NCBI RefSeq assembly: GCF_008000775.2 | Contig: NZ_CP042905.2 | Span: 2,580,001-2,612,000, forward strand | Origin: Promethearchaeum syntrophicum | GTDB lineage: Archaea; Asgardarchaeota; Lokiarchaeia; Sigyniarchaeales; Promethearchaeaceae | Length of the DNA stretch: 32,000 nt | Reading direction: 5' to 3' | Position numbers and translations under genes: made by a program | Part shown: in pieces, positions 978 through 30,917 of the stretch | Layout of the letters: every line of letters starts with the position of its first letter | How positions within the stretch are numbered: position 1 is the first letter of the stretch | The notes under the pieces: model-generated | Databases searched by the model: none | The model's input: the letters and a program-made list of their open reading frames with translations, nothing else | What the model was told of the DNA's origin: nothing

Positions 978-1074
978 AATAACCAGCTAAGAATTCTAGA
1001 CTAAATAAATTGAAATTTCATACGTAAACAATTTTTTTTTAAAAGTGTAAAAATAAACGGAAAGGAAAAAAATA

Positions 1075-1872
1075 ATGGAAAATAATGAATCTGTATTGGT
1101 AAATGTCGAATCATTATCAAAATCTTTTGAAAATGTGCAAGCTGTAGATAATCTCTCATTTCAAATTCGAAAAGGAGAAATTTATGGATTGTTAGGACCA
1201 AACGGGGCAGGAAAAACAACCACGATTAAATTAATTTTAGGTTTATTAGAGGCTGATGCTGGAGATATAACAGTTTTAGGTCTTAAACCAGAAAATGATG
1301 AGGTTGAAATTAAGAACCAGATTGGATATGTCTCTGAAGAACCATTAATTTACAAATCTTTGACACCGAAGGAATTATTTAATTTTATTGCTTCTATTCG
1401 TAAATTAGATGGTGCTAAAGTTACAATGAAGTTAGCTGAATATTTAGAAGGTTTGGGTGCAATTGAGTATTATGAACGCTTAATTTCTACTTTATCAAGA
1501 GGAAATAAACAAAAAGTACAAATAATTGCAGCAATTTTACATGATCCAGAAATTCTGATAATGGATGAACCTTTAGCAGGATTAGATGCCAAATCGGTTA
1601 AAGTTGTAAAAGAAATTGTAGATTTACATACTAAAAGAGGAGGATCTGTTCTGTTTTCCACACATATCATGGAAGTCGCTGAAGATATTTGTGATCGCAT
1701 CGGAATTATTAATGAAGGAAAATTAGTTGCAGAAGGTAATTTTGAAGAACTCCGCCAAAAAGCCAATGCTCTTGGAGAAAATGTCGATTTAGAAGACATA
1801 TTCCTAAAACTCACAGAACAAGACGAATCAATAAATGAAATTGTTGAAAAACTCCGAACCACAATGATATGA
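1075..1872 (+). CDS. ABC transporter ATP-binding protein (ABC-2-like single NBD)
   Basis: Walker A GPNGAGKTT, ABC signature LSRGNKQKV, Walker B ILIMDEP, H-loop FSTHIM; 265 aa, a typical NBD length. Confidence 0.93.
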   Translation: MENNESVLVNVESLSKSFENVQAVDNLSFQIRKGEIYGLLGPNGAGKTTTIKLILGLLEADAGDITVLGLKPENDEVEIKNQIGYVSEEPLIYKSLTPKELFNFIASIRKLDGAKVTMKLAEYLEGLGAIEYYERLISTLSRGNKQKVQIIAAILHDPEILIMDEPLAGLDAKSVKVVKEIVDLHTKRGGSVLFSTHIMEVAEDICDRIGIINEGKLVAEGNFEELRQKANALGENVDLEDIFLKLTEQDESINEIVEKLRTTMI

Positions 1873-1882
1873 GGTAAAATAA

Positions 1883-3601
1883 ATGAAAAGTAAAGAACTC
1901 TACAAAATATCGAATTATGTTTATAATGAATCTTTTTTACAATCGCATTTAGATATGTCGGGAGCGAATGTTTCTTCAGTCATGGAAAAAATGGAAAAGA
2001 ATAAGAAGTATATTAAAAATCAAGTTATTTTTACGAAAATAATAATGGTATTATATGTTTCCTTCTTAATTTTCCTTCCAATTACAGGTTATCTTCAGAT
2101 CCAAAATGCAATAAACGAAGGAGTTTCAATAACATGGGTCCTTTTTTTAGGGGGGGCAGTAAATGGAGCTTATTTTCTTTTTCAATTTGCATATCTATTA
2201 ATGTTTGGAATGTTTAGTTCTACAGGACTGTTCACAGGGAATTTATTTCACTGGATATCTACTTTGCCAATAAAAAGAAAGGACATGAATAAAATTGGAA
2301 TGATGACATTATTCCGTGTTATTGATGCACAATTTATTGCCTTAATGTTAATATTTCCCCTTGCAACTGCCATTATCACCAAAAGTATAATAATTACTCT
2401 CATTAGTCTAGGATTATCTACTCTAAATACAATTTTTTCCTTTAATGTATTGATAATTTTATCGAAAAAATTTGCAGGAGTTATTAAAGGGGCAGATTCC
2501 AATGCTAAAGGCTCTAATTTAGCGCGAATTTTATTCTTGGTTGGTTATCTAGCAACAACTATGTTTGCAGTAATAGGGATACAATTTCTTCCTGAAGTTA
2601 TCAATTCGCTATATTATCAAGTACCTCCAAACCTAGCTTTATTTGAAACTTTAAATCAATGGATTAGTTTAATCCCCTTTCCTGTAAGTGGAGGTTATTT
2701 ATTAACTAGCTTTCTAATTGGATTAAATAATGTCGGAATGAATTTAATTCTACCAATATTAGTTGGTTTGGCCATTTTCGCTCTTATAGACTATGTTATG
2801 CTTAAAAAATCTCTTAAAATCATGAATGATGTCATTATTTCAAGATCAGATTCAAAAAAGCAAAATTTCAAGGTTTCTACTGTATCAGATGTTTCAGTTA
2901 CTGTTGTTTCCCCCATTAAAGCTTTTTTTCAAAGAGATAAAAGCATGATATTAAGAGATATCCAAGCTATCATTTTTATAATTATTCCTGTGATTTTACC
3001 ATGGATACCCTTTTTTATCATGATAAGACCTGAAACAGGATTTGTTGAAATTGAAGGATTTGGGGTTATGGAATTGATTTATTGCGTGATGGGAGCAACT
3101 ATGAATATATTGGGTTTAACAATGGTTGAGAAATCCGGAGCAACGATTAATGCTTCATTACCTATCATTGTACGTGATCAAGTTAAAGCAAGGTTGAAAT
3201 GGGCATTTAGTATAATACCTTTGGGTACTTTACTTCCAGTTGTTATGTACATTGGAAATTCTCTTTTTTGGGATGTCTTCATTATCCAAATTTCAATTTC
3301 TTTTGTTGGCTTACTAATTGGAACATTCTCATTATTATTGTGGATTAGATTATTTGGAAAAATGAAAAAAAAATATGTTTTAGACGAAATCCATTTTAGA
3401 TATAAGATTGCAAAAAATATTTTAATTGTTGTTATAGACTTCATTCTCTTGGTGCTTCTTACTATCGGTTTTGTAATATTGTTAAATTCTTGGAATCTTA
3501 GTAAATTTTCTATAATAATTTTCCCGATTGAATTAGTTCTGGCATTAATTTTATATCTTGTATATAACAAAATGTTTCCCAAACCAAAAAAAATCAATTA
3601 A
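1883..3601 (+). CDS. Large polytopic membrane protein, putative permease partner of the ABC ATPase
   Basis: The ATG lies 11 nt after the ATPase stop, with GAGGT about 8 nt upstream, which suggests operon coupling. The 572-aa protein has ten or more hydrophobic helices. The permease role is inferred from context only; no family motif recognised. Confidence 0.7.
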   Translation: MKSKELYKISNYVYNESFLQSHLDMSGANVSSVMEKMEKNKKYIKNQVIFTKIIMVLYVSFLIFLPITGYLQIQNAINEGVSITWVLFLGGAVNGAYFLFQFAYLLMFGMFSSTGLFTGNLFHWISTLPIKRKDMNKIGMMTLFRVIDAQFIALMLIFPLATAIITKSIIITLISLGLSTLNTIFSFNVLIILSKKFAGVIKGADSNAKGSNLARILFLVGYLATTMFAVIGIQFLPEVINSLYYQVPPNLALFETLNQWISLIPFPVSGGYLLTSFLIGLNNVGMNLILPILVGLAIFALIDYVMLKKSLKIMNDVIISRSDSKKQNFKVSTVSDVSVTVVSPIKAFFQRDKSMILRDIQAIIFIIIPVILPWIPFFIMIRPETGFVEIEGFGVMELIYCVMGATMNILGLTMVEKSGATINASLPIIVRDQVKARLKWAFSIIPLGTLLPVVMYIGNSLFWDVFIIQISISFVGLLIGTFSLLLWIRLFGKMKKKYVLDEIHFRYKIAKNILIVVIDFILLVLLTIGFVILLNSWNLSKFSIIIFPIELVLALILYLVYNKMFPKPKKIN

Positions 3602-3908
3602 AATCCTAATATAGTGACTTTTGTCATTATTTTTTCTTTTTAAATTTAGCTTTCTTCTTCTTAATCTTAATTTTTCTCAGAAGTCAATCCATTTTTTCAG
3701 TCTCGAACTTTAAGATGTTTTTTGAAAATTTTTCATAATGTTATAATTTATAGCGCTAGGACCAATTATTATAACTAATTAAATAATTGGTTAGTCTGCT
3801 GTAACTCAATTAAAGAATTTATTACAGCTTGTAGAATTCGATATAAATAATCATTGAATTCGACTTATGACCTATAATTATTTGAACTACTAGAAGGAAA
3901 AGATTAAA

Positions 3909-6900
3909 ATGATTTTAACCAAGATTTTGAAAGGGAAAATCTTTCATAAAGTAAAGAAAAGATCACCTCTTACGAAATATTTATTTTCATTTTTGCTTTT
4001 TCTCTCATTTTCTGCTGTATTATCGGGAATTCAAATATATCCCACAACTCTCGATAATTTTGAAAATGGAGACCAAGCAAAAGAAGATATTTCTCATGAT
4101 TTTCTCGCAATGATTCCAAAAGCAAGTATCGGACCAACCATTGAGAATTTAACCAAAACTGATCTACTTGAATTGGGAGATTATGCAAATATTACAGTCG
4201 ACATAAACCACACCAATGGAGTGGATACAGCTTTCATCGAGATCGGTGGTACTAATTATACCATGACAAAAGGAGCTGGGGTTAACGAATATAACTATAC
4301 ATGGCAACCAAGCGCAGTGGGAAACATCCCTTTCACAATTTATGCTAATGATAGCGTTGGGGGAGAATGGAGTTCACTCCCAGAAGATTCAATCAATGTT
4401 CAAGATACAACTGGACCTTCATTATCATTTTTAACTAAAGTTAATGGTGATCCAACCGAGTTAGGAGTAAATGTTACAATTCGAATCACAGCAACCGATT
4501 TATCAACAGTTGATAGAGTATGGATCAATTTCGATGGAACTAATTACTCAATGAACTCTCTACCGGCTGATGTATACAATTATTCCGCACCACATCCAGT
4601 CGGGACTTATGGATTTACCATTTATGCCAATGATACAGAGGGGAATGAAGCAACTCCAGTTGTAAACTCCATCAGCGTTGAAGACACAATCATCCCAGAC
4701 ATAAATAATGTAGTGGAAGTTAGTGGAGATCCGGTCGAATTTGGAGATTCCATTTATATCCGAGTAAATGTAACCGATTTATCAACGATTGATGATGTCT
4801 GGATTGATTTAGATGGAACTAATTATACTATGAACTACATCAGTGATGATATGTATTATTACACTGCATCTCCGGCAGTTGGGTTACACACCTATACCAT
4901 TTATGCTAATGATACTACAGGAAATGAAGGTTCTACAGGTCCTTATACTATTACTGTATCAGATACAATTGCCCCAACAATATCGAATGTTGTGGAAGTG
5001 AGTGGAGATCCAGTCGAATTTAATGGAGCTATCTATATCAGAGTTAATGTAACCGATTTATCAGGTGTTGATGATGTCTGGATTGATTTAGATGGAACCA
5101 ATTATACTATGATCTACATCAGTGATGATATGTATTATTACACTACATCTCCGGCAATTGGGTTGCACACCTATACAATTTATGCTAACGATACTGAAGG
5201 AAATGAAGGTTCTACAATTGCTTATACTATTACTGTATCAGATACAATTGCCCCAACAATATCGAATGTTGTGGAAGTGAGTGGAGATCCAGTCGAATTT
5301 AATGGAGCTATCTATATCAGAGTTAATGTAACCGATTTATCAGGTGTTGATGATGTCTGGATTGATTTAGATGGAACCAATTATACTATGATCTACATCA
5401 GTGATGATATGTATTATTACACTACATCTCCGGCAATTGGGTTGCACACCTATACCATTTATGCTAACGATACTGAAGGAAATGAAGGTTCTACAATTGC
5501 TTATACTATTACTGTATCAGATACAATTGCCCCAACAATATCGAATGTTGTGGAAGTGAGTGGAGATCCAGTCGAATTTAATGGAGCTATCTATATCAGA
5601 GTTAATGTAACCGATTTATCGGGTGTTGATGATGTCTGGATTGATTTAGATGGAACCAATTATACTATGATCTACATCAGTGATGATATGTATTATTACA
5701 CTACATCTCCGGCAATTGGGTTGCACACCTATACCATTTATGCTAACGATACTGAAGGAAATGAAGGAGCCACATTGGCTGATACAATCACCGTGGAAGA
5801 CACTATCGATCCGGTATTAGATGTTCCGGTTGAAGTGAGTGGAGATCCTGTCGAATTTAATGGAGCCATCTATATCAGAGTTAATGTAACCGATTTATCA
5901 ACGATTGATGATGTGTGGATCGATTTAGATGGGACCAATTACACCATGATCTACATCAGTGATGATATGTATTATTACACTACATCTCCGGCAGTTGGGT
6001 TACACACTTATACCATTTATGCTAACGATACTGAAGGAAATGAAGGTTCTACAGGTCCTTATACAATCACCGTAGAAGACACTATCGATCCGGTATTAGA
6101 TGTTCCGGTTGAAGTGAGTGGAGATCCGGTTGAATTTAATGGAGCCATCTATATCAGAGTTAATGTAACCGATTTATCAACGATTGATGATGTCTGGATT
6201 GATTTAGATGGAACTAATTATACTATGAACTACATCAGTGATGATATGTATTATTACACTGCATCTCCGGCAGTTGGGTTACACACTTATACAATATATG
6301 CTAATGATACTTCAGGAAATGAAGGTTCTACAGGTCCTTATACTATTACTGTATCAGATACAATTGCCCCAACAATATCGAATGTTGAGGAAGTGAGTGG
6401 AGATCCGGTTGAATTTAATGGAGCCATCTATATCAGAGTAAACGTGACCGATATATCAGGTGTTGATGATGTCTGGATTGATTTCGATGGAACCAATTAT
6501 ACTATGATCTACATTAGTGATGATATGTATTATTACACTACATCTCCGGCAATTGGGTTGCACACCTATACCATTTATGCTAACGATACTGAAGGAAATG
6601 AAGGTTCTACAATTGCTTATACTATTACTGTATCAGATACAATTGCCCCAACAATATCGAATGTTGTGGAAGTGAGTGGAGATCCGGTTGAATTTAATGG
6701 AGCTATCTATATCAGAGTTAATGTAACCGATTTATCAGGTGTAGATGATGTCTGGATTGATTTAGATGGAACCAATTATACTATGATCTACATCAGTGAT
6801 GATATGTATTATTACACTGCATCTCCAGCAGTTGGGTTACACACCTATACCATTTATGCTAATGATACCGAAGGAAATGAAGGAGCCACATTGGCTGATA

Positions 6901-9900
6901 CAATCACCGTAGAAGACACTATCGATCCGGTATTAGATGTTCCGGTTGAAGTGAGTGGTGATCCTGTCGAATTTAATGGAGCCATCTATATCAGAGTTAA
7001 TGTAACCGATTTATCAACGATTGATGATGTGTGGATCGATTTAGATGGGACCAATTACACCATGATCTACATCAGTGATGATATGTATTATTACACTACA
7101 TCTCCGGCAGTTGGGTTACACACTTATACCATTTATGCTAACGATACTGAAGGAAATGAAGGTTCTACAGGTCCTTATACAATCACCGTAGAAGACACTA
7201 TCGATCCGGTATTAGATGTTCCGGTTGAAGTGAGTGGTGATCCTGTCGAATTTAATGGAGCCATCTATATCAGAGTTAATGTAACCGATTTATCAACGAT
7301 TGATGATGTGTGGATCGATTTAGATGGGACCAATTACACCATGATCTACATCAGTGATGATATGTATTATTACACTACATCTCCGGCAGTTGGGTTACAC
7401 ACTTATACCATTTATGCTAACGATACTGAAGGAAATGAAGGTTCTACAGGTCCTTATACAATCACCGTAGAAGACACTATCGATCCGGTATTAGATGTTC
7501 CGGTTGAAGTGAGTGGAGATCCGGTTGAATTTAATGGAGCCATCTATATCAGAGTTAATGTAACCGATTTATCAACGATTGATGATGTCTGGATTGATTT
7601 AGATGGAACTAATTATACTATGAACTACATCAGTGATGATATGTATTATTACACTGCATCTCCGGCAGTTGGGTTACACACTTATACAATATATGCTAAT
7701 GATACTTCAGGAAATGAAGGTTCTACAGGTCCTTATACTATTACTGTATCAGATACAATTGCCCCAACAATATCGAATGTTGAGGAAGTGAGTGGAGACC
7801 CGACCCAATCAGGATCAAATGTCTATATTCGAGTAAATGTGTCCGATTTATCAACGATTGATGATGTCTGGATCGATTTCGATGGAACCAATTATACTAT
7901 GATCTACATTAGTGATGATATGTATTACTTCTCTAGCTTGTATGTTATCGGAACATATCCTTATTCAATTTATGCTAATGATACATACGGTAACCAAGAT
8001 TCACTTACTGGTTTCGATATTGAGGTTTCAGATACAACACCACCTATAATCTCAAATATTGTTGAAGTAAGTAATGATCCAACAGAATTCAATAGTGATA
8101 TTTATATACGTGTTAATGTAACCCATCCTGTTGGAGTTGATGATGTATGGATTGAATTTAATGGAATTAATTTCACTATGACACCATTGGGAGGGATTAT
8201 GTATTATTACACGGCAACATACGGTATAAACACCTACTCATATACAATTTATTCGAATAGTACAATCGGAATTGAAGGTTCCTCAGGACCTTATACTATC
8301 ACTGTTTCAGACAATACTGATCCTTCCTTAGATATTCCTGTTGAAGTGAGTGGAGATCCAGTCGAATTTAATGGAGCCATCTATATCCGAGTTAATGTAA
8401 CCGATTTATCAACAATTGATGATGTCTGGATTGATTTAGATGGAACCAATTATACTATGATCTACATCAGTGATGATATGTATTATTACACTGCATCTCC
8501 AGCGGTTGGAATATACACTTATACCATTTATGCCAACGACACCTACGAGAATGAAGGTTCTACAGGTCCTTATACAATCACCATAGAAGACACTATCGAT
8601 CCAGTTTTATCCAATGTTGTGGAAGTGAGTGGAGATCCAGTCGAATTTAATGGAGCCATCTATATCAGAGTTAATGTAACCGATTTATCAACGATTGATG
8701 ATGTGTGGATCGATTTAGATGGGACCAATTACACCATGATCTACATCAGTGATGATATGTATTATTACACTACATCTCCGGCAGTTGGGTTACACACTTA
8801 TACCATTTATGCTAACGATACTGAAGGAAATGAAGGTTCTACAGGTCCTTATACAATCACCGTAGAAGACACTATCGATCCGGTATTAGATGTTCCGGTT
8901 GAAGTGAGTGGAGATCCGGTTGAATTTAATGGAGCCATCTATATCAGAGTTAATGTAACCGATTTATCAACGATTGATGATGTGTGGATCGATTTAGATG
9001 GGACCAATTACACCATGATCTACATCAGTGATGATATGTATTATTACACTACATCTCCGGCAGTTGGGTTACACACTTATACCATTTATGCTAACGATAC
9101 TGAAGGAAATGAAGGTTCTACAGGTCCTTATACAATCACCGTAGAAGACACTATCGATCCGGTATTAGATGTTCCGGTTGAAGTGAGTGGAGATCCGGTT
9201 GAATTTAATGGAGCCATCTATATCAGAGTTAATGTAACCGATTTATCAACGATTGATGATGTGTGGATCGATTTAGATGGGACCAATTACACCATGATCT
9301 ACATCAGTGATGATATGTATTATTACACTACATCTCCGGCAGTTGGGTTACACACTTATACCATTTATGCTAACGATACTGAAGGAAATGAAGGTTCTAC
9401 AGGTCCTTATACAATCACCGTAGAAGACACTATCGATCCGGTATTAGATGTTCCGGTTGAAGTGAGTGGAGATCCGGTTGAATTTAATGGAGCCATCTAT
9501 ATCAGAGTTAATGTAACCGATTTATCAACGATTGATGATGTGTGGATCGATTTAGATGGGACCAATTACACCATGATCTACATCAGTGATGATATGTATT
9601 ATTACACTACATCTCCGGCAGTTGGGTTACACACTTATACCATTTATGCTAACGATACTGAAGGAAATGAAGGTTCTACAGGTCCTTATACAATCACCGT
9701 AGAAGACACTATCGATCCGGTATTAGATGTTCCGGTTGAAGTGAGTGGAGATCCGGTTGAATTTAATGGAGCCATCTATATCAGAGTTAATGTAACCGAT
9801 TTATCAACGATTGATGATGTGTGGATCGATTTAGATGGGACCAATTACACCATGATCTACATCAGTGATGATATGTATTATTACACTACATCTCCGGCAG

Positions 9901-12900
9901 TTGGGTTACACACTTATACCATTTATGCTAACGATACTGAAGGAAATGAAGGTTCTACAGGTCCTTATACAATCACCGTAGAAGACACTATCGATCCGGT
10001 ATTAGATGTTCCGGTTGAAGTGAGTGGAGATCCGGTTGAATTTAATGGAGCCATCTATATCAGAGTTAATGTAACCGATTTATCAACGATTGATGATGTG
10101 TGGATCGATTTAGATGGGACCAATTACACCATGATCTACATCAGTGATGATATGTATTATTACACTACATCTCCGGCAGTTGGGTTACACACCTATACCA
10201 TTTATGCTAATGATACCGAAGGAAATGAAGGAGCCACATTGGCTGATACAATCACCGTAGAAGACACTATCGATCCGGTATTAGATGTTCCGGTTGAAGT
10301 GAGTGGAGATCCGGTTGAATTTAATGGAGCCATCTATATCAGAGTTAATGTAACCGATTTATCAACGATTGATGATGTCTGGATTGATTTAGATGGAACT
10401 AATTATACTATGAACTACATCAGTGATGATATGTATTATTACACTGCATCTCCGGCAGTTGGGTTACACACTTATACAATATATGCTAATGATACTTCAG
10501 GAAATGAAGGTTCTACAGGTCCTTATACTATTACTGTATCAGATACAATTGCCCCAACAATATCGAATGTTGAGGAAGTGAGTGGAGACCCGACCCAATC
10601 AGGATCAAATGTCTATATTCGAGTAAATGTGTCCGATTTATCAACGATTGATGATGTCTGGATCGATTTCGATGGAACCAATTATACTATGATCTACATT
10701 AGTGATGATATGTATTACTTCTCTAGCTTGTATGTTATCGGAACATATCCTTATTCAATTTATGCTAATGATACATACGGTAACCAAGATTCACTTACTG
10801 GTTTCGATATTGAGGTTTCAGATACAACACCACCTATAATCTCAAATATTGTTGAAGTAAGTAATGATCCAACAGAATTCAATAGTGATATTTATATACG
10901 TGTTAATGTAACCCATCCTGTTGGAGTTGATGATGTATGGATTGAATTTAATGGAATTAATTTCACTATGACACCATTGGGAGGGATTATGTATTATTAC
11001 ACGGCAACATACGGTATAAACACCTACTCATATACAATTTATTCGAATAGTACAATCGGAATTGAAGGTTCCTCAGGACCTTATACTATCACTGTTTCAG
11101 ACAATACTGATCCTTCCTTAGATATTCCTGTTGAAGTGAGTGGAGATCCAGTCGAATTTAATGGAGCCATCTATATCAGAGTTAATGTAACCGATTTATC
11201 AACGATTGATGATGTGTGGATCGATTTAGATGGGACCAATTACACCATGATCTACATCAGTGATGATATGTATTATTACACTGCATCTCCGGCAGTTGGG
11301 TTACACACTTATACCATTTATGCTAACGATACCGAAGGAAATGAAGGTTCTACAGGTCCTTATACAATCACCGTAGAAGACACTATCGATCCGGTCTTAT
11401 CCAATGTTGTGGAAGTGAGTGGAGATCCAGTCGAATTTAATGGAGCCATCTATATCAGAGTTAATGTAACCGATTTATCAACAATTAATGATGTCTGGAT
11501 TGATTTAGATGGAACCAATTATACTATGATCTACATCAGTGATGATATGTATTATTACACCACATCTCCGGCAGTTGCGGTGCACACCTATACCATTTAT
11601 GCTAATGATACTGAAGGAAATGAAGGTTCTACAGGTCCTTATACAATCACCATAGAAGACACTATTGGCCCTATTTTATCAAACTTAGTCGAAGTGAGTG
11701 GTGATCCAACCCAATCCGGTCAAGATATATATATCCGTCTAAATGTATCTGATTTCTCAACTTTAGACGATGTATGGATCGATTTTGATGGAATAAATTA
11801 TACGATGACTCCACTGAGTGGTGATATGTATTACTACACAGATTCTTATGGTTTCGGTGTGTATTCGTATACAATCTATGCTAATGATACTTATGGTAAC
11901 ACAGCCTCAATATTAGGCCCAGATATTACAGTTACGGATATAACTGCACCTATTATATCTAATTTAGTTGAAGTTAGTGGCGATCCTGTTGAATTTAATG
12001 GATCAATTTATATTCGGATAAATGTGACAGATCCATCAGGAGTAGATTCTGTGTGGATCGATTTCGATGGGACAAATTACACGATGACTTCACTAAGTGG
12101 TGATATGTATTATTACTCTACTTCACCTGCTGTTGGTACCCATAATTATACTATATATGCAAATGATACATATGGAAATGAGGGTATGATTTCAGGAGAT
12201 ATTTCAGTATCAGAAATTGTCCAATCTATTATCATCTTCGACCTTACTGATTATGCTACAGATTCATTAGCTGCTGATTCTGATTTTAATGTATCCTTAC
12301 CAATTGATAATAGCAGTACGATGGACTGGGCAAAAGTATATTTTATAATTGTTTCTGGACCTAGTTCTGCAGCACCAGGTGATAATTGGACGCCAATTGA
12401 TCTTGTAAATGGCCAAGCAACTATTTCATCAGAATACTATGATTCTGGAGATACACTATCCTACTATTTTGAAATCAGAGATACTGATGGGAATATCTTT
12501 TATGTTTTCAGTTCGGGAATAAGTACGAGTAATGCTACAGCTCAGACAGCTGCCTTTTCATTCGAAATAACCAATGCTACAGGAGGAACACCACTACCTT
12601 TTGATATCATGCAATATCTGCCTTATATATTAGGAGGTGTGGGAGTATTAGCGGTCATTTTAGTTTCTGTAGGAATCAAAAAATCGGCATCAAAGAGATC
12701 TATTTCTAAGAAAGATCTCCGCAATATGAAGGAAGCGGGTGATGCTGCAAAAGAATTACTTGAACGACAGAAAACCATACAAAAAGAAGCGAGTTATGCA
12801 GAGAAGAATAAGGATTATTACACAGTGGTTTTATTGTATGAAAAATTAATCGAAATTGCCGATGCCTTGTTCAAATTTGGTCGACCGGAAGCAGCAGATG

Positions 12901-13349
12901 ATATTAAGACCTATAAAGCCAAAATTATTAAATATCAAGAAAAGGTCCAAGAAGAACCAAAAACACAGGGAAAACCCAGTAATAAGCAAGTAGCTCAACA
13001 AAAAGCAGCTGAGTATTTGAAGATGGCCGATGATGCAGAAAATTCTAATGATTTTCTGCAAGCTCTCGCCATTCATCATCAAATTTTAATATTACGGGAA
13101 GAAATTAAAGAAAAATCTTTAGTTTCAGCTACCAAAGCGAAAATTAAAACAATAATTGCCAAAATCCCTAATATAAAAGAGATTAGCGCCGGAATTGTCA
13201 AAGAAGCAGAAAACAAATATAAAGAAAAAGATTATATGACAGCTTACGCCAATTATCGCTATTTGAAGACTATTTTTGAAGCGCTCGAGGATAAGACTTT
13301 AATTAAAACCGTAGACAAATTGATATCGGATGTTTCTAAATATATTTAA
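3909..13349 (+). CDS. Giant (3,146 aa) type-I membrane-anchored surface/adhesin-like protein with 29 tandem 93-aa beta-sandwich-like repeats and a helical cytoplasmic tail
   Basis: Single uninterrupted 9,441-nt ORF. It has an N-terminal basic region plus a hydrophobic signal/anchor (LTKYLFSFLLFLSFSAVLSG), then a 279-nt periodic coding array. A C-terminal TM helix (LPYILGGVGVLAVILVSVGI) is followed by KKSASKR and 222 aa of K/E/A-rich helical sequence. NxS/T sequons are dense throughout. Confidence 0.9.
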   Translation: MILTKILKGKIFHKVKKRSPLTKYLFSFLLFLSFSAVLSGIQIYPTTLDNFENGDQAKEDISHDFLAMIPKASIGPTIENLTKTDLLELGDYANITVDINHTNGVDTAFIEIGGTNYTMTKGAGVNEYNYTWQPSAVGNIPFTIYANDSVGGEWSSLPEDSINVQDTTGPSLSFLTKVNGDPTELGVNVTIRITATDLSTVDRVWINFDGTNYSMNSLPADVYNYSAPHPVGTYGFTIYANDTEGNEATPVVNSISVEDTIIPDINNVVEVSGDPVEFGDSIYIRVNVTDLSTIDDVWIDLDGTNYTMNYISDDMYYYTASPAVGLHTYTIYANDTTGNEGSTGPYTITVSDTIAPTISNVVEVSGDPVEFNGAIYIRVNVTDLSGVDDVWIDLDGTNYTMIYISDDMYYYTTSPAIGLHTYTIYANDTEGNEGSTIAYTITVSDTIAPTISNVVEVSGDPVEFNGAIYIRVNVTDLSGVDDVWIDLDGTNYTMIYISDDMYYYTTSPAIGLHTYTIYANDTEGNEGSTIAYTITVSDTIAPTISNVVEVSGDPVEFNGAIYIRVNVTDLSGVDDVWIDLDGTNYTMIYISDDMYYYTTSPAIGLHTYTIYANDTEGNEGATLADTITVEDTIDPVLDVPVEVSGDPVEFNGAIYIRVNVTDLSTIDDVWIDLDGTNYTMIYISDDMYYYTTSPAVGLHTYTIYANDTEGNEGSTGPYTITVEDTIDPVLDVPVEVSGDPVEFNGAIYIRVNVTDLSTIDDVWIDLDGTNYTMNYISDDMYYYTASPAVGLHTYTIYANDTSGNEGSTGPYTITVSDTIAPTISNVEEVSGDPVEFNGAIYIRVNVTDISGVDDVWIDFDGTNYTMIYISDDMYYYTTSPAIGLHTYTIYANDTEGNEGSTIAYTITVSDTIAPTISNVVEVSGDPVEFNGAIYIRVNVTDLSGVDDVWIDLDGTNYTMIYISDDMYYYTASPAVGLHTYTIYANDTEGNEGATLADTITVEDTIDPVLDVPVEVSGDPVEFNGAIYIRVNVTDLSTIDDVWIDLDGTNYTMIYISDDMYYYTTSPAVGLHTYTIYANDTEGNEGSTGPYTITVEDTIDPVLDVPVEVSGDPVEFNGAIYIRVNVTDLSTIDDVWIDLDGTNYTMIYISDDMYYYTTSPAVGLHTYTIYANDTEGNEGSTGPYTITVEDTIDPVLDVPVEVSGDPVEFNGAIYIRVNVTDLSTIDDVWIDLDGTNYTMNYISDDMYYYTASPAVGLHTYTIYANDTSGNEGSTGPYTITVSDTIAPTISNVEEVSGDPTQSGSNVYIRVNVSDLSTIDDVWIDFDGTNYTMIYISDDMYYFSSLYVIGTYPYSIYANDTYGNQDSLTGFDIEVSDTTPPIISNIVEVSNDPTEFNSDIYIRVNVTHPVGVDDVWIEFNGINFTMTPLGGIMYYYTATYGINTYSYTIYSNSTIGIEGSSGPYTITVSDNTDPSLDIPVEVSGDPVEFNGAIYIRVNVTDLSTIDDVWIDLDGTNYTMIYISDDMYYYTASPAVGIYTYTIYANDTYENEGSTGPYTITIEDTIDPVLSNVVEVSGDPVEFNGAIYIRVNVTDLSTIDDVWIDLDGTNYTMIYISDDMYYYTTSPAVGLHTYTIYANDTEGNEGSTGPYTITVEDTIDPVLDVPVEVSGDPVEFNGAIYIRVNVTDLSTIDDVWIDLDGTNYTMIYISDDMYYYTTSPAVGLHTYTIYANDTEGNEGSTGPYTITVEDTIDPVLDVPVEVSGDPVEFNGAIYIRVNVTDLSTIDDVWIDLDGTNYTMIYISDDMYYYTTSPAVGLHTYTIYANDTEGNEGSTGPYTITVEDTIDPVLDVPVEVSGDPVEFNGAIYIRVNVTDLSTIDDVWIDLDGTNYTMIYISDDMYYYTTSPAVGLHTYTIYANDTEGNEGSTGPYTITVEDTIDPVLDVPVEVSGDPVEFNGAIYIRVNVTDLSTIDDVWIDLDGTNYTMIYISDDMYYYTTSPAVGLHTYTIYANDTEGNEGSTGPYTITVEDTIDPVLDVPVEVSGDPVEFNGAIYIRVNVTDLSTIDDVWIDLDGTNYTMIYISDDMYYYTTSPAVGLHTYTIYANDTEGNEGATLADTITVEDTIDPVLDVPVEVSGDPVEFNGAIYIRVNVTDLSTIDDVWIDLDGTNYTMNYISDDMYYYTASPAVGLHTYTIYANDTSGNEGSTGPYTITVSDTIAPTISNVEEVSGDPTQSGSNVYIRVNVSDLSTIDDVWIDFDGTNYTMIYISDDMYYFSSLYVIGTYPYSIYANDTYGNQDSLTGFDIEVSDTTPPIISNIVEVSNDPTEFNSDIYIRVNVTHPVGVDDVWIEFNGINFTMTPLGGIMYYYTATYGINTYSYTIYSNSTIGIEGSSGPYTITVSDNTDPSLDIPVEVSGDPVEFNGAIYIRVNVTDLSTIDDVWIDLDGTNYTMIYISDDMYYYTASPAVGLHTYTIYANDTEGNEGSTGPYTITVEDTIDPVLSNVVEVSGDPVEFNGAIYIRVNVTDLSTINDVWIDLDGTNYTMIYISDDMYYYTTSPAVAVHTYTIYANDTEGNEGSTGPYTITIEDTIGPILSNLVEVSGDPTQSGQDIYIRLNVSDFSTLDDVWIDFDGINYTMTPLSGDMYYYTDSYGFGVYSYTIYANDTYGNTASILGPDITVTDITAPIISNLVEVSGDPVEFNGSIYIRINVTDPSGVDSVWIDFDGTNYTMTSLSGDMYYYSTSPAVGTHNYTIYANDTYGNEGMISGDISVSEIVQSIIIFDLTDYATDSLAADSDFNVSLPIDNSSTMDWAKVYFIIVSGPSSAAPGDNWTPIDLVNGQATISSEYYDSGDTLSYYFEIRDTDGNIFYVFSSGISTSNATAQTAAFSFEITNATGGTPLPFDIMQYLPYILGGVGVLAVILVSVGIKKSASKRSISKKDLRNMKEAGDAAKELLERQKTIQKEASYAEKNKDYYTVVLLYEKLIEIADALFKFGRPEAADDIKTYKAKIIKYQEKVQEEPKTQGKPSNKQVAQQKAAEYLKMADDAENSNDFLQALAIHHQILILREEIKEKSLVSATKAKIKTIIAKIPNIKEISAGIVKEAENKYKEKDYMTAYANYRYLKTIFEALEDKTLIKTVDKLISDVSKYI
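4155..12245 (+). repeat. In-frame tandem array, 29 x 279 nt (93 aa), inside the giant gene
   Basis: Hand alignment shows unit starts at 4713 + 279k (checked at 4992, 5271, 8619, 8898, 9177, 9456, 9735, 10014, 10293). Two degenerate units lie upstream (4155, 4434) and three diverged units at the 3' end (11409, 11688, 11967). The span 8091 nt equals 29 x 279 exactly. Confidence 0.95.
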
Positions 13350-13356
13350 TCGGAAC

Positions 13357-13406
13357 CTCCCCTTTTTTGATTAGATTTTATATTTTTTTCTTTTATTCTT
13401 TTTTTG
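13357..13406 (+). terminator. Oligo-T tracts downstream of the giant gene (archaeal-type termination signal)
   Basis: T6 at 13363-13368, T7 at 13383-13389 and T7 at 13399-13405, all within 60 nt of the stop codon. Confidence 0.4.
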
Positions 13407-13519: not shown

Positions 13520-13540
13520 CATGATTTTTCAAGTTAATCT
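13520..13540. repeat. IS terminal inverted repeat (end nearest the transposase stop)
   Basis: Perfect 21-nt reverse complement of 15268-15288. Confidence 0.9.
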
Positions 13541-15202
13541 TTTTTCATAAAATTGTGCTTGGACTTTACTAATTCCTAAAAATTTCAATGTTTTTTTTAA
13601 CCAATTTTCACTTAAAACCTTCTTACGTCCATCATGCATAGATTTAAGCAACCGCCAATTTAGATTACTCGCTTCTTCCCAAATATCACTTTCTAATTCT
13701 TCATCTCTACAGAATACAAAACGCAAATGGTAATCTCCTTCAGTAAGGATCAGCCTTCCCACTTGTTTCTTAGCACTACGACTGTAAAAATGCGATTTTT
13801 GGCGTCCAAAGGCTTGCTCTAAAGTATTATTTGTCAAAATCGGTTTTTCAAATTTACGATAACTGAATAGACCATTACGATAACTTTCCCACAATCTTAG
13901 CCACTCTCCCATTATTTCCAAATATGTACTAGACGATCGCGGTAAATAGGCCCGCAAATTCGTTTTAACAAAATTTTGATCGGTTTCAAGTAGTTTTTGC
14001 TCCAAATTGACAAATAATGTTGCCATGTTGTCCTCGATCTCTGATGAACTTACATTTTTTGCAAAGTATCCTGAATAAATTTCTTTGAAGATCTCAAAAA
14101 GTTCGTTACAATCAGAATAGAGAGAATATAATGAACTTAATGATTCTGTCCATTTTTCTCCCTCTCTACGATATATTTTGTGAATTCGATAGTTTTGAGG
14201 TACTTGACTCATGATTTCAAACATTTGAGCTGTGTAATCGTCTAAATGTTCGAAAAATTTAATCCCCCTAAGTTGTTCAAATTTTTTGTTTCTGAAGCGT
14301 TTCATTTTTTTTAAATCAGCAATTATCGGAGAAAAAACCGTTTTTGGGGCAATTTTTCCATGTTCTTCAATATATATTGGGGAATTAGGACCTGTGTTCA
14401 AAAAATAGCTATTTTGTATTACTTGAGATAATCTTTTATGGAGTTTTCCATCAAGTAATTCCAAATGATTCCAAATATTATTCATAAAATGGTACCCACA
14501 GTATTGATGGGGTATTTTGGGATAATATTTGGAGATGCAACTCGTTATATTGTTTTGTTTATCGCTAATAAATCCACTTATCTTCACAGAATAAAGAGAG
14601 ATAATTTTTTCAATCTCATCATGCAGAATATCTGCTGTTGCACTTTCTAGGTAAACCGTGGATAGTAATCGGTTCGAAATTAAATCAACAAAGAGCCACA
14701 ATCCTGGACCCTCAACCAATGGATCCTCTCCATCTAAACCCATTAAAATGACTTTTTGTTTCTTTATAATTTCTAAAGTTTTTTGATCAATAGCTTCAGA
14801 TTTGACTACAGTCACCACATTAATCATTCTTCGGATTGTACTTTCAGAAATTTTCAATTTATATTCTGTTTGAAGCACATCTAAAATATATGCTGCCTTA
14901 AAATGTTTCTTCAAAGCGTAAAATGCTACCTTTTGTACAACATCTTTTCCATAATAGAAACCTTCAAATTCAAACCGAGATTGAGGATTAAATACAATAT
15001 CGTGCATTTTACAATTTGGATTAATGCAATGATAATAGATTGTGATTTGATTTATGTCTCCAGCAAGAGAATGCACGATTTTACCATTGTCTGCATATTT
15101 TTTGATTACTTTTTCCTGACAGACAGGACATTCTTTTGGTAAATTCTGGGGCCATTTTAGATAAACGGTACAATAATCCCCCGACTGAGCATGATATTTC
15201 AT
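13529..15202 (-). CDS. DDE-type transposase with N-terminal zinc ribbon (IS256/IS66-like D...D...CxxH pattern; family not resolved)
   Basis: N-terminus has CPVCQEK...CINPNCKMH (CxxC...CxxxxC). Candidate catalytic motifs are LMGLDGEDP (D1) and GFISDKQNNITSCISKYYPKIPHQYCGYHFMNN (D2 followed by a HQxCxxH..N block). As I recall, this resembles the IS256/MULE and IS66 signatures. The ORF is bounded by terminal IRs. Confidence 0.75.
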   Translation of the reverse strand: MKYHAQSGDYCTVYLKWPQNLPKECPVCQEKVIKKYADNGKIVHSLAGDINQITIYYHCINPNCKMHDIVFNPQSRFEFEGFYYGKDVVQKVAFYALKKHFKAAYILDVLQTEYKLKISESTIRRMINVVTVVKSEAIDQKTLEIIKKQKVILMGLDGEDPLVEGPGLWLFVDLISNRLLSTVYLESATADILHDEIEKIISLYSVKISGFISDKQNNITSCISKYYPKIPHQYCGYHFMNNIWNHLELLDGKLHKRLSQVIQNSYFLNTGPNSPIYIEEHGKIAPKTVFSPIIADLKKMKRFRNKKFEQLRGIKFFEHLDDYTAQMFEIMSQVPQNYRIHKIYRREGEKWTESLSSLYSLYSDCNELFEIFKEIYSGYFAKNVSSSEIEDNMATLFVNLEQKLLETDQNFVKTNLRAYLPRSSSTYLEIMGEWLRLWESYRNGLFSYRKFEKPILTNNTLEQAFGRQKSHFYSRSAKKQVGRLILTEGDYHLRFVFCRDEELESDIWEEASNLNWRLLKSMHDGRKKVLSENWLKKTLKFLGISKVQAQFYEKRLT

Positions 15203-15267: not shown

Positions 15268-15288
15268 AGATTAACTTGAAAAATCATG
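15268..15288. repeat. IS terminal inverted repeat (end nearest the transposase start)
   Basis: Perfect 21-nt reverse complement of 13520-13540. Confidence 0.9.
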
Positions 15289-15342
15289 AAAAAAAAATTT
15301 TTTTTTTTAAGAAAAAATATATTAAAACTAAAAGTGTTGATT

Positions 15343-18336
15343 ATGAAAAATAAAACGTTAAAAATTATAGGTGTCATGGTTATTACGACATTTATTCTAA
15401 GCTATTTAAGCACTACGGCCTTAGTTTCAGCAGCGAATGGAGAACCGAATTTTATTTTGGAGACCTCAGAAGCAAAAAATTATGGAATGGGGGTTATACA
15501 GACTGAAAGATCAGTAGCAGCTACTCTTCAAATGAATGGAGAAGTCTCTGGGGGATTTACATATACAGATTTCTTGGGTAATCCTCAAGTGGCTGAAGAC
15601 TCTGTTTTTGAAACGGAAAATTCTCACCTCTATTATCCAGTTAATTTACGATATGAGAATTATTGGAATACGGAACTTTTGAGGGAATTTAGTACACATT
15701 ATGCAAGGGCACGAAATGTCTCAGATCTACCAGATCAACATGGAAATTACACAGCTTCTTTTGTAACTGAACAATATGAATTATCTGTAGATACTAGTTG
15801 TGAAATTTCTGTATCAGATTTAACCTCTGAAATTCTTTTTGATGTCTCCTCTAAAGGAATTTATCAAATTTGGATGAACAATATTAACCTAATCGGAAGT
15901 CCAGTCATTTTGTCTCCAACAGATAAATTTGTTATTCCCGTAGAAAATGAGTTACCACCGGTGATTGATGGAGGGGATTCTTTAGGCAAATATTTCTTTT
16001 TTGCTGCATATGAAACTGGGATTTATAGAATTTACCTTCAAACTGGTGACCCAATTATTACTTTAAGAGCAGAACATCATAAAGGGCAATCGATTAAATT
16101 AGGTGAAGCGATTCGTGGAGGAAAAGATCCAAGTGATCCAACATTCTTTGATACAGTCTATTCAATGGATGTTTATCAACTGGATGTAAAAAATTTAGAA
16201 ACTGTATACAAATATCTTTTAGATTTTGAATATGGATCACCTTCTTTATATTATTTTGTTGAAGATAGTCTGACGTCATATTCCTCAAGTTTGAACCCAG
16301 GTATTAATCGAGTTTTACCTTCTGTTACCGATAGTAAAGTATATATTGTAATCGATAATCCAAATTATTTCTCTTGGGCAGACCCTGGAATTGATGAAGC
16401 AGATCCACTAAAATATACTATGAAATTTGATGAGGTAGAACCTATAGAACATATAATTGGCGGAAATCAAACAATAAATTTAGCCAAATCAATAGGAGTT
16501 ACTGCAAGAACTTTTGAAATTGTAAATACATCTTTAGTATCATTCCATTTTGAAGATTTAGGCGCAAATTCACCAAATGTTTTTGGAAATAAAATTATAA
16601 AAATTGATGAAGAACAAGCACGGGATGCTTCAATACCGTCAACAATTTCTTCATCAAATGGAACTTTCATGAGTGCACTTTTAGAACCAGGAAAATATAA
16701 AGTTATTTTTCAGCATTCAGGATCAATGGGCCCAGAATATCTTCATTTCTATACAAAATTAGTAGAATTTCAACCATTAAATGTCGAAGGTATGGATTTA
16801 TCCGGAACCTTACCTTATAATTTTACTGGTCTAAATTTTGAAGATGTCACATTACCAGCATGGGAAGGCTATCCAAATACCTATGGGGCAACCTATCCGC
16901 TTGGTTTCAATATTTCAATTGATGAAAACTTTTGGGATTATGGTTATAATGTTTCAATTCATGCAGACAAAAATGCAGAAATTTTTGATGACTATATTAC
17001 TCCCGATTTGGCAGTTCTCTGGGACGATGATGGTAATGATTTTACAGATTATACTGAGGCAATCCAACCAGGAAATGCAACAAAAGTCCCTGTAAAAACA
17101 ATTCCTAGTGGTGATGTTGGAGATGCTTTGATTATTGGTGCTTATGATAAATTTGATCGTATTGAAGTTACATTGGCTGATCCATCAGATAGAGATGCTT
17201 TTGAATGGCAATATTACCGTGAATTCTGGGGATGGAGAGATTTTGATGCAGAGGATCCAAATTTCGATGATGGAACTCTAACTGCTACAGGAAGTTTAAA
17301 TAAGAGTGGAACATTATCTTGGGATCCGGAGGAATTAACTAATTGGAACTTTTTCTCTTCTGGTTCAGATGATATTGGTTCTGAAAGACCAAATACAGAT
17401 GATGAAAATTATTACTTAATTAGAGTTAGATGTACTGATGATGCAGCCGATATCGCTAATATTACCTCAGTAAGATTAAGGAAATTTACTAAGATCAATC
17501 TTGATTTAGGTAGTAAACTGGCTTTTAATATTGGGACTCCAGAAAAGCCTGTTTATTATAGAGCCAGTTCGGGCTCATCTTCGAATTTAAAATTCGCATC
17601 GAGTTATAACCAATCAAGTTATTTAGATGTAGTTCATACAATAGATAAGAATTATTATTCAGAAGAGGCAATTCTATATCTCTATGCTAGTGATATTCAA
17701 TTATATGACTATAATGGATCCAATAACGGAGTTTATGTTCCATTGGAAAAACCTTTGACATACTCGGTTTGTGTTTTTCAACCAGAAGCGAATTATAAAC
17801 AAATTATCCCGTATAATATCAGTTTAAATGTTCCAACAACTCATTCGAATCAGTTGAATTTATCCGCACTTCCAAGTGATCAATCAAATACCATAATAGT
17901 ACCTGATAGACGTACAGTGTACCTTAATATTACACCACGAACTATGTACGATTGGACACAAATTAATGTGCAATTTATCAACGCAAGTGTATTATCAACC
18001 CGTCTCATTGCTCCAGCAATGTATGATTTAGACACAGCAAGTACATATACGAGTACTTATGGTAATGGTCAATTTAATTTAGGCTATACTGGAGTCAATA
18101 TGAATGCGTCCATCGAATTCGGGTTTATTACTGAGACACTTTATCTTGAATTTGTTATTGAAAACACAACGAATAATTCTCCAATTATGAAAACCTATGG
18201 AGGACAATTTAACTACCCAATGTTAACAATATTAGAAGCATCAGTAAAATCTAATACGGGATTATACGTTGGAATTGGTGCCGGGGTAGTTGTTTTGATT
18301 GCAGTTTCAGTTGTACTCTATAAAAAGAAACATTAA
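15343..18336 (+). CDS. Secreted, C-terminally membrane-anchored surface protein of unknown function (997 aa from the preferred start)
   Basis: A signal peptide follows the internal ATG at 15343 (MKNKTLKIIGVMVITTFILSYLSTTALVSAANG). A C-terminal TM helix (GLYVGIGAGVVVLIAVSVVLY) is followed by KKKH. Many NxS/T sequons are present. The ORF-track start at 15286 lies inside the IS inverted repeat and an A/T homopolymer, so it is disfavoured. Confidence 0.8.
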   Translation: MKNKTLKIIGVMVITTFILSYLSTTALVSAANGEPNFILETSEAKNYGMGVIQTERSVAATLQMNGEVSGGFTYTDFLGNPQVAEDSVFETENSHLYYPVNLRYENYWNTELLREFSTHYARARNVSDLPDQHGNYTASFVTEQYELSVDTSCEISVSDLTSEILFDVSSKGIYQIWMNNINLIGSPVILSPTDKFVIPVENELPPVIDGGDSLGKYFFFAAYETGIYRIYLQTGDPIITLRAEHHKGQSIKLGEAIRGGKDPSDPTFFDTVYSMDVYQLDVKNLETVYKYLLDFEYGSPSLYYFVEDSLTSYSSSLNPGINRVLPSVTDSKVYIVIDNPNYFSWADPGIDEADPLKYTMKFDEVEPIEHIIGGNQTINLAKSIGVTARTFEIVNTSLVSFHFEDLGANSPNVFGNKIIKIDEEQARDASIPSTISSSNGTFMSALLEPGKYKVIFQHSGSMGPEYLHFYTKLVEFQPLNVEGMDLSGTLPYNFTGLNFEDVTLPAWEGYPNTYGATYPLGFNISIDENFWDYGYNVSIHADKNAEIFDDYITPDLAVLWDDDGNDFTDYTEAIQPGNATKVPVKTIPSGDVGDALIIGAYDKFDRIEVTLADPSDRDAFEWQYYREFWGWRDFDAEDPNFDDGTLTATGSLNKSGTLSWDPEELTNWNFFSSGSDDIGSERPNTDDENYYLIRVRCTDDAADIANITSVRLRKFTKINLDLGSKLAFNIGTPEKPVYYRASSGSSSNLKFASSYNQSSYLDVVHTIDKNYYSEEAILYLYASDIQLYDYNGSNNGVYVPLEKPLTYSVCVFQPEANYKQIIPYNISLNVPTTHSNQLNLSALPSDQSNTIIVPDRRTVYLNITPRTMYDWTQINVQFINASVLSTRLIAPAMYDLDTASTYTSTYGNGQFNLGYTGVNMNASIEFGFITETLYLEFVIENTTNNSPIMKTYGGQFNYPMLTILEASVKSNTGLYVGIGAGVVVLIAVSVVLYKKKH

Positions 18337-18340
18337 GTTT

Positions 18341-18395
18341 AAGATAGGATCTTTTTTTCTTATCTTTTACATTTTTTTTTCACTTTTTTCTCATT
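18341..18395 (+). terminator. Weak hairpin plus oligo-T tracts after the surface-protein gene
   Basis: aagatagga..ttttttt..cttatctt forms an imperfect stem around T7 (18352-18358). Further T9 and T6 runs follow. Confidence 0.4.
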
Positions 18396-18471
18396 TTATC
18401 TCCTGCCTCTTCTCATATAATATCATTAGAATTATCAAAATCTAAAAAAAGAAAAATTGAAATAAAATGAA

Positions 18472-30247: not shown

Positions 30248-30400
30248 ATACTATAACATTCAGATGTCATGTATCTTCGCGAAATACCTATTTCACGTAG
30301 AATCCTATAGTTCTAGATAACATTTAGAAATATTTTTTTCTTAGACAAGATAAAAATTGAAAAAAATATTGATTTATCTTGGCTAATTTTTTTTTCATTA

Positions 30401-30415
30401 ATTTTGTGGGAAATT
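30401..30415. repeat. 15-bp direct repeat attttgtgggaaatt (left copy) bounding the iteron module
   Basis: Exact copy at 30903-30917, 502 bp away. Confidence 0.85.
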
Positions 30416-30479
30416 ATTTTTTGGATTTAGTAACAGAAATTATTTTTTAATTTTTATTTCCTGATTTCTTAAAAAACAT

Positions 30480-30904: not shown

Positions 30905-30917
30905 TTTGTGGGAAATT
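30903..30917. repeat. 15-bp direct repeat attttgtgggaaatt (right copy)
   Basis: Exact copy of 30401-30415. Confidence 0.85.

Follow-up and report, generated by a model that had tools for sequence, protein, structure and literature searches.

The window analysed here, 32,000 nucleotides of the genome of the archaeon Promethearchaeum syntrophicum MK-D1 (contig NZ_CP042905.2, positions 2,580,001 to 2,612,000), carries at positions 3909-13349 of its forward strand an intact gene, locus DSAG12_02882, for a giant protein of 3146 amino acids (aa). The protein combines a signal-like N-terminus, a long tandem array of immunoglobulin (Ig)-like units assigned by profile score to the Pfam family Big_7, a single transmembrane (TM) helix and a 222-aa cytoplasmic tail that is homologous to the C-terminal end of other giant membrane proteins of the Lokiarchaeia. 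The explanation we propose, and in which we place moderate confidence, is that DSAG12_02882 encodes a glycosylated, variable-length surface rod of the kind known from periscope proteins and fibrillar adhesins, prolonged inside the cell by a protein-interaction module.

The giant gene and its product

MK-D1 is the first cultured Asgard (Lokiarchaeial) archaeon, and N-glycosylated surface proteins with a type-I anchor are the norm among Asgard archaea. The open reading frame (ORF) is identical to the record QEE17050.2 / WP_369019452.1 / UniProt A0A5B9DE30, which is carried on a contig of 4,324,194 bp and annotated "hypothetical protein" in P. syntrophicum MK-D1. The host given by the record agrees with the nearby gene for the beta subunit of pyruvate:ferredoxin oxidoreductase (POR), whose product is 88-90% identical to those of metagenome-assembled genomes (MAGs) of Promethearchaeum sp. 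The features of the gene are the following, in coordinates of the window.

3840-3852, forward strand: putative promoter, TATA-like box GATATAAATAATC (sequence reading)
3909-13349, forward strand: complete coding sequence, 3146 aa, 346 kDa, ATG start (ORF scan)
3909-4040, forward strand: predicted N-terminal signal peptide or signal-anchor, aa 1-44 (hydropathy scan)
4146-4712, forward strand: two diverged distal Ig-like units, aa ~80-268 (unit comparison)
4713-12245, forward strand: 27 tandem Big_7 Ig-like units of 279 bp / 93 aa, aa 269-2779 (Tandem Repeats Finder, repeat finder, Pfam)
7503-8339, forward strand: units 13-15, same DNA sequence (100% identity) as units 23-25 at 10293-11129 (unit DNA comparison)
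8898-10013, forward strand: units 18-21, four identical 279-bp copies forming a perfect tandem repeat of 1116 bp (unit DNA comparison)
12246-12605, forward strand: membrane-proximal non-repeat domain, aa 2780-2899 (AlphaFold2, all-beta, predicted local distance difference test (pLDDT) ~50-60)
12615-12677, forward strand: single TM helix, aa ~2903-2923, YLPYILGGVGVLAVILVSVGI (hydropathy scan)
12681-13346, forward strand: cytoplasmic tail of 222 aa, aa 2925-3146, pI 9.3 (AlphaFold2, profile comparisons)
13362-13405, forward strand: putative archaeal oligo-T terminator, T-rich runs CCCCTTTTTTG and TTTTTTTCTTTTATTCTTTTTTTG directly past the stop codon (sequence reading)

An earlier sequence-only reading of this DNA had described a giant ORF at this place, and the ORF is indeed an intact gene. 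It remains open for 9.4 kb in a genome background of ~30% GC, the other five frames hold 178-359 stop codons over the same interval, and the nonsynonymous divergence is lower than the synonymous one (pN<pS) in every one of the 171 pairwise comparisons between distinct repeat units (ratio of means 0.33). The last result means that the repeat array is coding and under purifying selection; taken together, the three observations establish the ORF as real coding sequence. Its GC content (37% vs 30% for the genome) is higher because of the amino-acid composition of the product. The 307-bp intergenic region upstream of the gene is AT-rich and contains the TATA-like box, and an AGGA motif lying 11 nt 5' of the ATG is a putative ribosome-binding site.

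The architecture described by the sequence-only reading is confirmed, since the intact ORF, the 279-bp array, the two hydrophobic segments and the nine-helix model of the tail are all present. The hydropathy scan finds two hydrophobic segments only, at aa 21-44 and at aa ~2903-2923. The first corresponds to the basic N-terminus with a hydrophobic signal or anchor that had been noticed before: a basic n-region with 7 K/R precedes the hydrophobic stretch LFSFLLFLSFSAVLSGI. The second is the single TM helix, which is followed, as previously pointed out, by positive-inside residues (KKSASKRSISKK).

The repeat array

Tandem Repeats Finder reports a period of 279 bp and 24.9 copies, and a second repeat finder reports 28 copies at an exact spacing of 279 bp from 4434 to 12266. 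At the protein level, 27 exact units of 93 aa and the two diverged ones add up to the 29 units that had been counted from the translation. The 27 units of the array fall into 19 variants in DNA and 15 in protein; the unit that had been taken as canonical is the most frequent of them, with 8 copies. Most units are 84-100% identical to one another in DNA, and blocks of 837 and 1116 bp recur without any difference. The first of these blocks, units 13-15, is one arm of a higher-order duplication of 10 units, and the second, units 18-21, is the part of the array most prone to assembly collapse or recombination.

The figure of 29 depends on the assembly version. An exhaustive profile search recovered QEE17050.1 (P0003), the previous version of the same record, which is 1844 aa long, coincides with QEE17050.2 over its first 526 and its last 687 residues and holds 15 units, 14 fewer than the current version, in a region where the identity between repeats rises to 100%. 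The reading frame is kept in both versions. When each unit type is given a letter, the long version reads ABBCDEFGDDEHIJDDDDDKEHILMNO and the short one ABPDEHIJDQMNO. P and Q are chimeras that do not occur in the long version, and QEE17050.1 furthermore holds one substitution found in no unit of the long version. The chimeric units and the unique substitution indicate a collapse of repeats in the earlier assembly rather than an expansion in the later one. The difference between 15 and 29 units, as read from the two sequences, thus points to assembly collapse and not to biological variation in length, and 29, the submitters' revised figure, is probably the better of the two.

In public MAGs the homologues of the unit carry almost without exception the annotation "partial", and one orthologous N-terminal fragment stops at the end of its contig, from which it follows that such genes break short-read assemblies. 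Their collapse or truncation in these assemblies (15 units becoming 29 in the revised record, MAG homologues mostly partial) is why such genes are missed.

Within 6104-10329, Tandem Repeats Finder also detects at eight sites, at the junctions of D-type units, an imperfect internal duplication of 21 bp (TCCGGTTGAAGTGAATGGAGA x 2) that encodes ...PVEVSGDPVEF.... Such a sub-repeat at the unit boundary might guide in-register recombination.

The ectodomain

The sequence-only reading had recognised an Ig- or cadherin-like beta-sandwich in the 93-aa unit without being able to place it in a named family. The Ig- or cadherin-like nature of the unit is borne out by profile matches, and the family can now be named: by its profile scores the unit belongs to Pfam Big_7 (PF17957, bacterial Ig-like domain, E-set). 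The whole protein scores 209.6 bits (E=7e-63) over 25 stretches, one canonical unit scores 24.9 bits against a gathering cut-off of 24.1, and the precomputed PF17957 annotation is found on most homologues of the unit. In the PDB the unit matches the BIg domains of SiiE (2yn3, E=2e-4). There are further, weak matches to a bacterial Ig domain and, in SraP, to the cadherin-like module. NCBIfam LapB_rpt_80 (NF033932) reaches a sum score of 171.5 bits for a cut-off of 45, with no individually significant stretch reported. In the structural half of the check that had been suggested, on the unit and the proximal region, AlphaFold2 folds the last unit and the proximal domain as all-beta at low confidence (pLDDT 54), the last unit having 7 strands at a pLDDT of only ~50-70. 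The beta-sandwich fold of the unit rests for this reason on the profile matches.

The N-terminal 82 aa have no Pfam match, and the 186 aa that follow are the two diverged Big_7 units, which are separated from the signal by a 38-aa linker. Identity to the canonical unit is 35-50% for these two, and orthologous fragments retain them at 63-78% identity; they constitute the membrane-distal tip of the ectodomain. At the other end of the array, the ~120-aa non-repeat domain that had been delimited before is there: it has no match to the unit profile and only a DTDGN motif in common with the unit, and fragment P0001 is 75% identical over a 377-aa C-terminal query that contains it. That it might be a thirtieth, diverged unit is not supported by hhalign (probability 0.2%).

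The ectodomain is extremely acidic (457 D+E vs 36 K+R, pI ~4) and devoid of cysteine. All 98 N-x-S/T sequons of the protein lie before the TM helix, and the three sequons of each unit (NVT, NYT and NDT) are conserved across the Asgard homologues. MK-D1 N-glycosylates its proteins at N-X-S/T (PMC11284389).

The cytoplasmic tail and its family

The helical tail that had been read from the translation is modelled by AlphaFold2 as 9 helices with a mean pLDDT of 87. The helices are grouped in three modules of three (~12762-12965, 12972-13169 and 13167-13346), each of ~65 aa and mutually related (hhalign E ~1e-5, probability 79-82%). The tail has no Pfam match of its own. The pooled profile of the modules matches consensus TPR proteins in the PDB (summed E=3e-21, ~10-12 bits per repeat), the consensus x-E-K-x-x-D-Y-x-x-A-x-x-x-Y-Q fits that of the TPR, the best Foldseek matches of the model are TPR proteins such as LGN, at low TM-scores, and TPR_1, TPR_2 and TPR_12 are matched in 6-7 of the 18 tails of the family. 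The tandem periodicity of 34 residues that defines TPR repeats is absent, the modules being of ~65 aa with three helices each.

The MIT domain was the other candidate for the tail. The whole-tail family profile has as its best natural PDB match the MIT domain of MITD1 (E=1.5e-3), and Pfam MIT (PF04212, gathering cut-off 30 bits) scores 20.2-30.1 bits on the tails of relatives, the value of 30.1 being reached in one of them. The tail of DSAG12_02882 itself gives no MIT match even at E<=10, the pooled module profile matches the MIT domain of VPS4A at E ~0.7 only, the profile of the first subdomain matches consensus TPR and not MIT, and hhalign against a small alignment of 4 MIT sequences returns probabilities of 1-26%. 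From the profiles and the model we conclude that the tail is predicted to be a TPR-like helical-repeat interaction domain with an MIT-like three-helix topology, its membership of the MIT family not being established.

The family to which the tail belongs emerged from an exhaustive HMMER search of 1.84 billion representative sequences, the word-indexed searches having returned 2 matches each. It gave 28 matches to the tail, of which ~20 are true homologues, all at the extreme C-terminus of their proteins; the others are generic TPR proteins aligned only to tail positions 117-154. A scan of genome contigs with the C-terminal 377 aa found no relative, in a set from which the MK-D1 genome is apparently absent. 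The complete homologues are large membrane proteins of 1611-2640 aa, including WP_371805894.1 of Lokiarchaeum ossiferum. In these giant Lokiarchaeial proteins (P0004, P0005, P0015, which is WP_371805894.1, P0016-P0018 and P0022) the C-terminal ~200 aa are homologous to the tail, with 22-32% identity and E-values from 3e-31 to 2.7e-6. They share with DSAG12_02882 the type-I topology and a large, sequon-rich ectodomain, but their ectodomains are unrelated to Big_7 repeats and their cytoplasmic part is of ~650 aa, with additional helical modules, instead of 222 aa. DSAG12_02882 thus looks like a domain-shuffled protein, since a stalk of Ig units is joined in its sequence to the terminal module of a different Lokiarchaeial family; it resembles an Ig-repeat stalk set on a lineage-specific cytoplasmic module.

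The proteins of the tail family also have a conserved juxtamembrane cytoplasmic domain of ~150 aa (IFDDAIN...DPDLISGFLSAVQSFGKE), for which neither Pfam nor the PDB offers a match; a longin or roadblock identity, proposed from a likeness seen by eye, was dropped for want of support from either database. In the three loci examined (L082, 3291-8126; L083, 10001-17923; L084, 8402-13333), an ATP-grasp_5 gene precedes the tail-family gene each time, and genes for an Arf/Ras-like GTPase and a P-type cation ATPase lie nearby in two. The conserved ATP-grasp_5 synteny is absent from the window around DSAG12_02882. In L. ossiferum, the tail-family gene is directly upstream of the gene for RNA polymerase A'.

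A model for DSAG12_02882 and its rivals

In the model we propose, the protein would be exported by the Sec pathway by means of its N-terminal signal and retained by its one C-terminal TM helix, and its ectodomain would be N-glycosylated at the N-x-S/T sequons. About 30 beta-sandwich domains, the 29 Big_7 units and the proximal domain, would form a rod. Bacterial BIg stalks such as that of SiiE extend by ~3.5-4 nm per domain; on the same assumption, the rod would measure roughly 100-120 nm. Its acidic linkers (E/S-D-T-I-D/A-P) may bind divalent cations, possibly stiffening it. It would project from a cell that has no S-layer and relies on syntrophic partners (PMC9834061), and may provide contact with, or spacing from, surfaces or the cells of these partners; the likeliest site of interaction would be the conserved, diverged pair of distal units. 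The length of the stalk could be altered by homologous recombination between near-identical DNA repeats, as in periscope proteins. On the other side of the membrane, the three TPR-like modules would act as a protein-protein interaction platform tying the rod to a cytoplasmic partner, and this partner would be common to the other giant Lokiarchaeial membrane proteins that bear the same terminal module.

Several observations weigh against this model. No adhesive or ligand-binding tip domain is recognised by Pfam, only the linker and the two diverged units being present beyond the array, and the term "adhesin", which the sequence-only reading had applied to the protein, is accordingly not demonstrated. 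The score of a single unit is borderline, the AlphaFold2 model of the unit and the proximal domain is of low confidence, the MIT similarity of the tail is marginal, and no partner was identified for it. The neighbouring genes offer no functional clue and the synteny is not conserved. Finally, the literature searched contains no paper naming the locus tag DSAG12_02882 and no description of the protein or of the tail family, and the localisation and glycosylation of the protein are predictions from its sequence.

The main rival, which we consider a good deal less probable than the contact or spacing rod, is that the protein is a passive component of a glycocalyx-like, non-adhesive coat, or a spacer of the irregular Asgard envelope, serving for protection, hydration or as a barrier to viruses, with a tail that only anchors, clusters or sorts it. 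In its favour, no adhesive domain was found, the density of sequons is very high and the charge strongly acidic, many surface proteins are present on cells devoid of S-layer, and a second type-I surface protein gene is located 2 kb downstream. Nevertheless, a single-chain rod of ~100 nm whose distal tip is conserved (63-78% identity in orthologous fragments) bears more resemblance to a projecting stalk, and a conserved tail of 222 aa exceeds what anchoring needs, the relatives managing with ~8 residues.

Could the protein be instead a receptor coupling the outside of the cell to the inside? The engagement of the rod, or the tension exerted on it, would reach the TPR/MIT-like tail by way of the TM helix, and the tail would recruit the ESCRT-III/Vps4, cytoskeletal or small-GTPase machinery in a way analogous to the tails of cadherins and integrins. 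More broadly, the giant type-I proteins would be Lokiarchaeia-specific receptors whose shared TPR/MIT-like module docks on a common machine, be it ESCRT-III/Vps4, the lokiactin cytoskeleton or regulators of small GTPases. We regard both the narrower and the broader form of this idea as doubtful, more so than the passive coat. In their favour, the tail is a conserved interaction module predicted to be folded, the match of the family profile to the MITD1 MIT domain and the 30.1 bits of Pfam MIT in one relative point in this direction, and the same module terminates giant proteins with ~650-aa cytoplasmic regions whose genes adjoin those of Arf-like GTPases in two of the three loci. On the other hand, MIT membership is not established, no partner, MIT-interacting motif (MIM)-binding groove or signalling domain has been identified, and the gene neighbourhood in the window is uninformative. 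If this idea were true, an Ig rod of ~100 nm touching a partner cell or a surface would be coupled, mechanically or functionally, to membrane remodelling inside the cell, and it would be, by analogy, a prokaryotic forerunner of the adhesion receptors of the cadherin/integrin style in the lineage closest to eukaryotes.

It is very improbable that the array of 29 units has been expanded too far or wrongly assembled, or that the ORF is silent or decaying: the 14 units separating the two record versions, the exact repeats of 837-1116 bp, longer than short reads, and the almost always partial MAG homologues could suggest it, but the long open frame at 30% GC, the stops of the other frames, the selection seen in all unit pairs and the signature of collapse in the shorter of two in-frame versions all go against it.

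Neighbouring genes

The other features of the window are the following.

15-3601, forward strand: ABC-type ATPase (1075-1872) between two membrane proteins, one of 320 aa (15-977) and a multi-pass one of 572 aa (1883-3601)
13529-15202, reverse strand: 557-aa ORF, Cys-rich (zinc-ribbon-like) at its N-terminus, weakly similar to MULE and IS256 transposases (22 bits each, below the cut-offs)
15286-18336, forward strand: second type-I surface protein gene, 1016 aa, with a signal at the N-terminus, numerous N-x-S/T sequons and the C-terminal TM helix GLYVGIGAGVVVLIAVSVVLY

The giant gene and the 1016-aa gene form a small cluster of surface-protein genes. In the 1016-aa protein, which has no Pfam or NCBIfam match, the TM helix is followed only by KKKH. 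Directly 3' of its gene, at 18352-18397, the T-rich 11-bp sequence TTTTTTTCATT is repeated 4.2 times in tandem, and the copies are probably successive oligo-T terminators. The 557-aa ORF, which by its weak similarities may be a transposase, sits between the two surface-protein genes.

Upstream of the giant gene, the two membrane proteins flanking the ABC ATPase have no family match, and the three genes probably encode an ABC-2-like exporter. A functional link with the giant gene was considered and rejected: the genes upstream of the orthologous fragment P0039 are not the same and, in the absence of synteny, the ABC genes are probably unrelated to DSAG12_02882.

A gene for a tyrosine recombinase (phage integrase family) lies at 29285-30247, and the sequence becomes very AT-rich over 30000-32000 (GC 24-26%), with a perfect tandem repeat of 9 bp x 3 at 30478-30505; an integrated element may have its edge in the region 29285-32000. 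The searches of the 32-kb window for tRNA genes and Rfam features found none.

Giant genes have been noted in Asgard mobile elements (Wu et al. 2022; PMC8813620), and with a transposase-like ORF abutting its 3' end and the integrase further on, DSAG12_02882 might be imagined as cargo of such an element. This is as unlikely as an assembly artefact: the window has no tRNA gene, no terminal repeats were found, none having been searched for around ORF 13529-15202, housekeeping genes (YbaK, PanE and POR) separate the giant gene from the integrase, orthologous fragments exist in related MAGs, and the higher GC is accounted for by the amino-acid composition.

Comparison with known systems

The stalk can first be compared with Big_7 surface proteins of MAGs of Promethearchaeota and Lokiarchaeota (P0031, P0034, P0041 and P0046), which share the same ~93-aa unit, the NVT/NYT/NDT sequons, the D-T-x-x-P linker and the C-terminal TM helix. 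Unlike DSAG12_02882, they end ~8 basic residues past this helix (e.g. LRPKRFLK) and have no TPR-like tail. The structured intracellular tail had been called unusual, and it is so among the Asgard and other archaeal proteins made of Big_7 units that reach their C-terminus. Several of the Big_7 relatives have in addition an N-terminal GEGHxSCHG domain (PF15418) that is absent from DSAG12_02882. In P0033, P0035, P0037 and P0043, from MAGs of Promethearchaeota and Hermodarchaeota, this N-terminal domain is of ~170 aa and carries the precomputed annotation PF15418/DUF4625; its motif resembles a metal- or haem-binding site.

Outside the archaea, the protein is best compared with the bacterial periscope proteins and fibrillar adhesins (SasG, Rib, SiiE, LapB, SraP; PMC9704523, PMC8286594), single chains that likewise present long arrays of near-identical Ig-like repeats, each of which folds on its own and which together should make a rod. 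Near-identical DNA repeats allowing the length of the stalk to change are the defining logic of the bacterial periscope proteins (PMC9704523), and DSAG12_02882 is periscope-like in this respect, the identity of its DNA repeats, which rises to 100%, permitting recombinational length change. Its sequence has 27 units at an exact spacing of 279 bp, mostly 84-100% identical in DNA, together with a signal and a TM helix by which it would be attached to the surface. It also shares sequence similarity with the Big_7, LapB repeat, SiiE BIg and SraP modules. The differences are its archaeal host, its dense N-glycosylation sequons, its 222-aa folded (predicted) cytoplasmic tail and its anchor, a C-terminal TM helix where the bacterial systems rely on sortase/LPXTG, retention by a type I secretion system (T1SS) or an autotransporter. 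With regard to the definition of fibrillar adhesins by Monzon and Bateman (PMC8286594), the stalk is present and an adhesive domain is not found.

The giant RTX/T1SS adhesins (SiiE, LapA and MpIBP type) are defined by a C-terminal T1SS signal or RTX repeats and by the lack of an N-terminal signal. This identity was rejected for DSAG12_02882, which has no RTX matches and possesses an N-terminal signal, a C-terminal TM helix and a helical tail; it resembles SiiE in the BIg fold only. As for the tail, MIT domains (Vps4, MITD1) and TPR repeats share with it three-helix modules built on a TPR-like hairpin, but its period is ~65 aa vs 34 aa in TPR repeats. Eukaryotic cadherins provide a purely functional analogy, with their type-I topology, tandem acidic beta-sandwich ectodomains, linkers of the D-x-x-D/P type and partner-recruiting tail; no homology was detected between DSAG12_02882 and cadherin domains or catenin-binding tails.

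As seen by cryo-tomography, the cells of cultured Lokiarchaeia have no ordered S-layer and bear on their cell bodies and protrusions many unidentified "complex surface proteins", which were proposed to mediate cell-cell contacts relevant to eukaryogenesis (PMC9834061), and the S-layer candidates predicted in MK-D1, which are other genes, went undetected by proteomics (PMC11284389). DSAG12_02882 is a concrete candidate for the molecular identity of such Asgard surface structures: a rod of ~346 kDa would be long enough to be visible in tomograms, and the intracellular module could serve as bait for the cytoplasmic connections of Asgard surface proteins. If our model is right, the principle of the periscope or fibrillar stalk, described in bacteria, would thereby be extended to the archaea.

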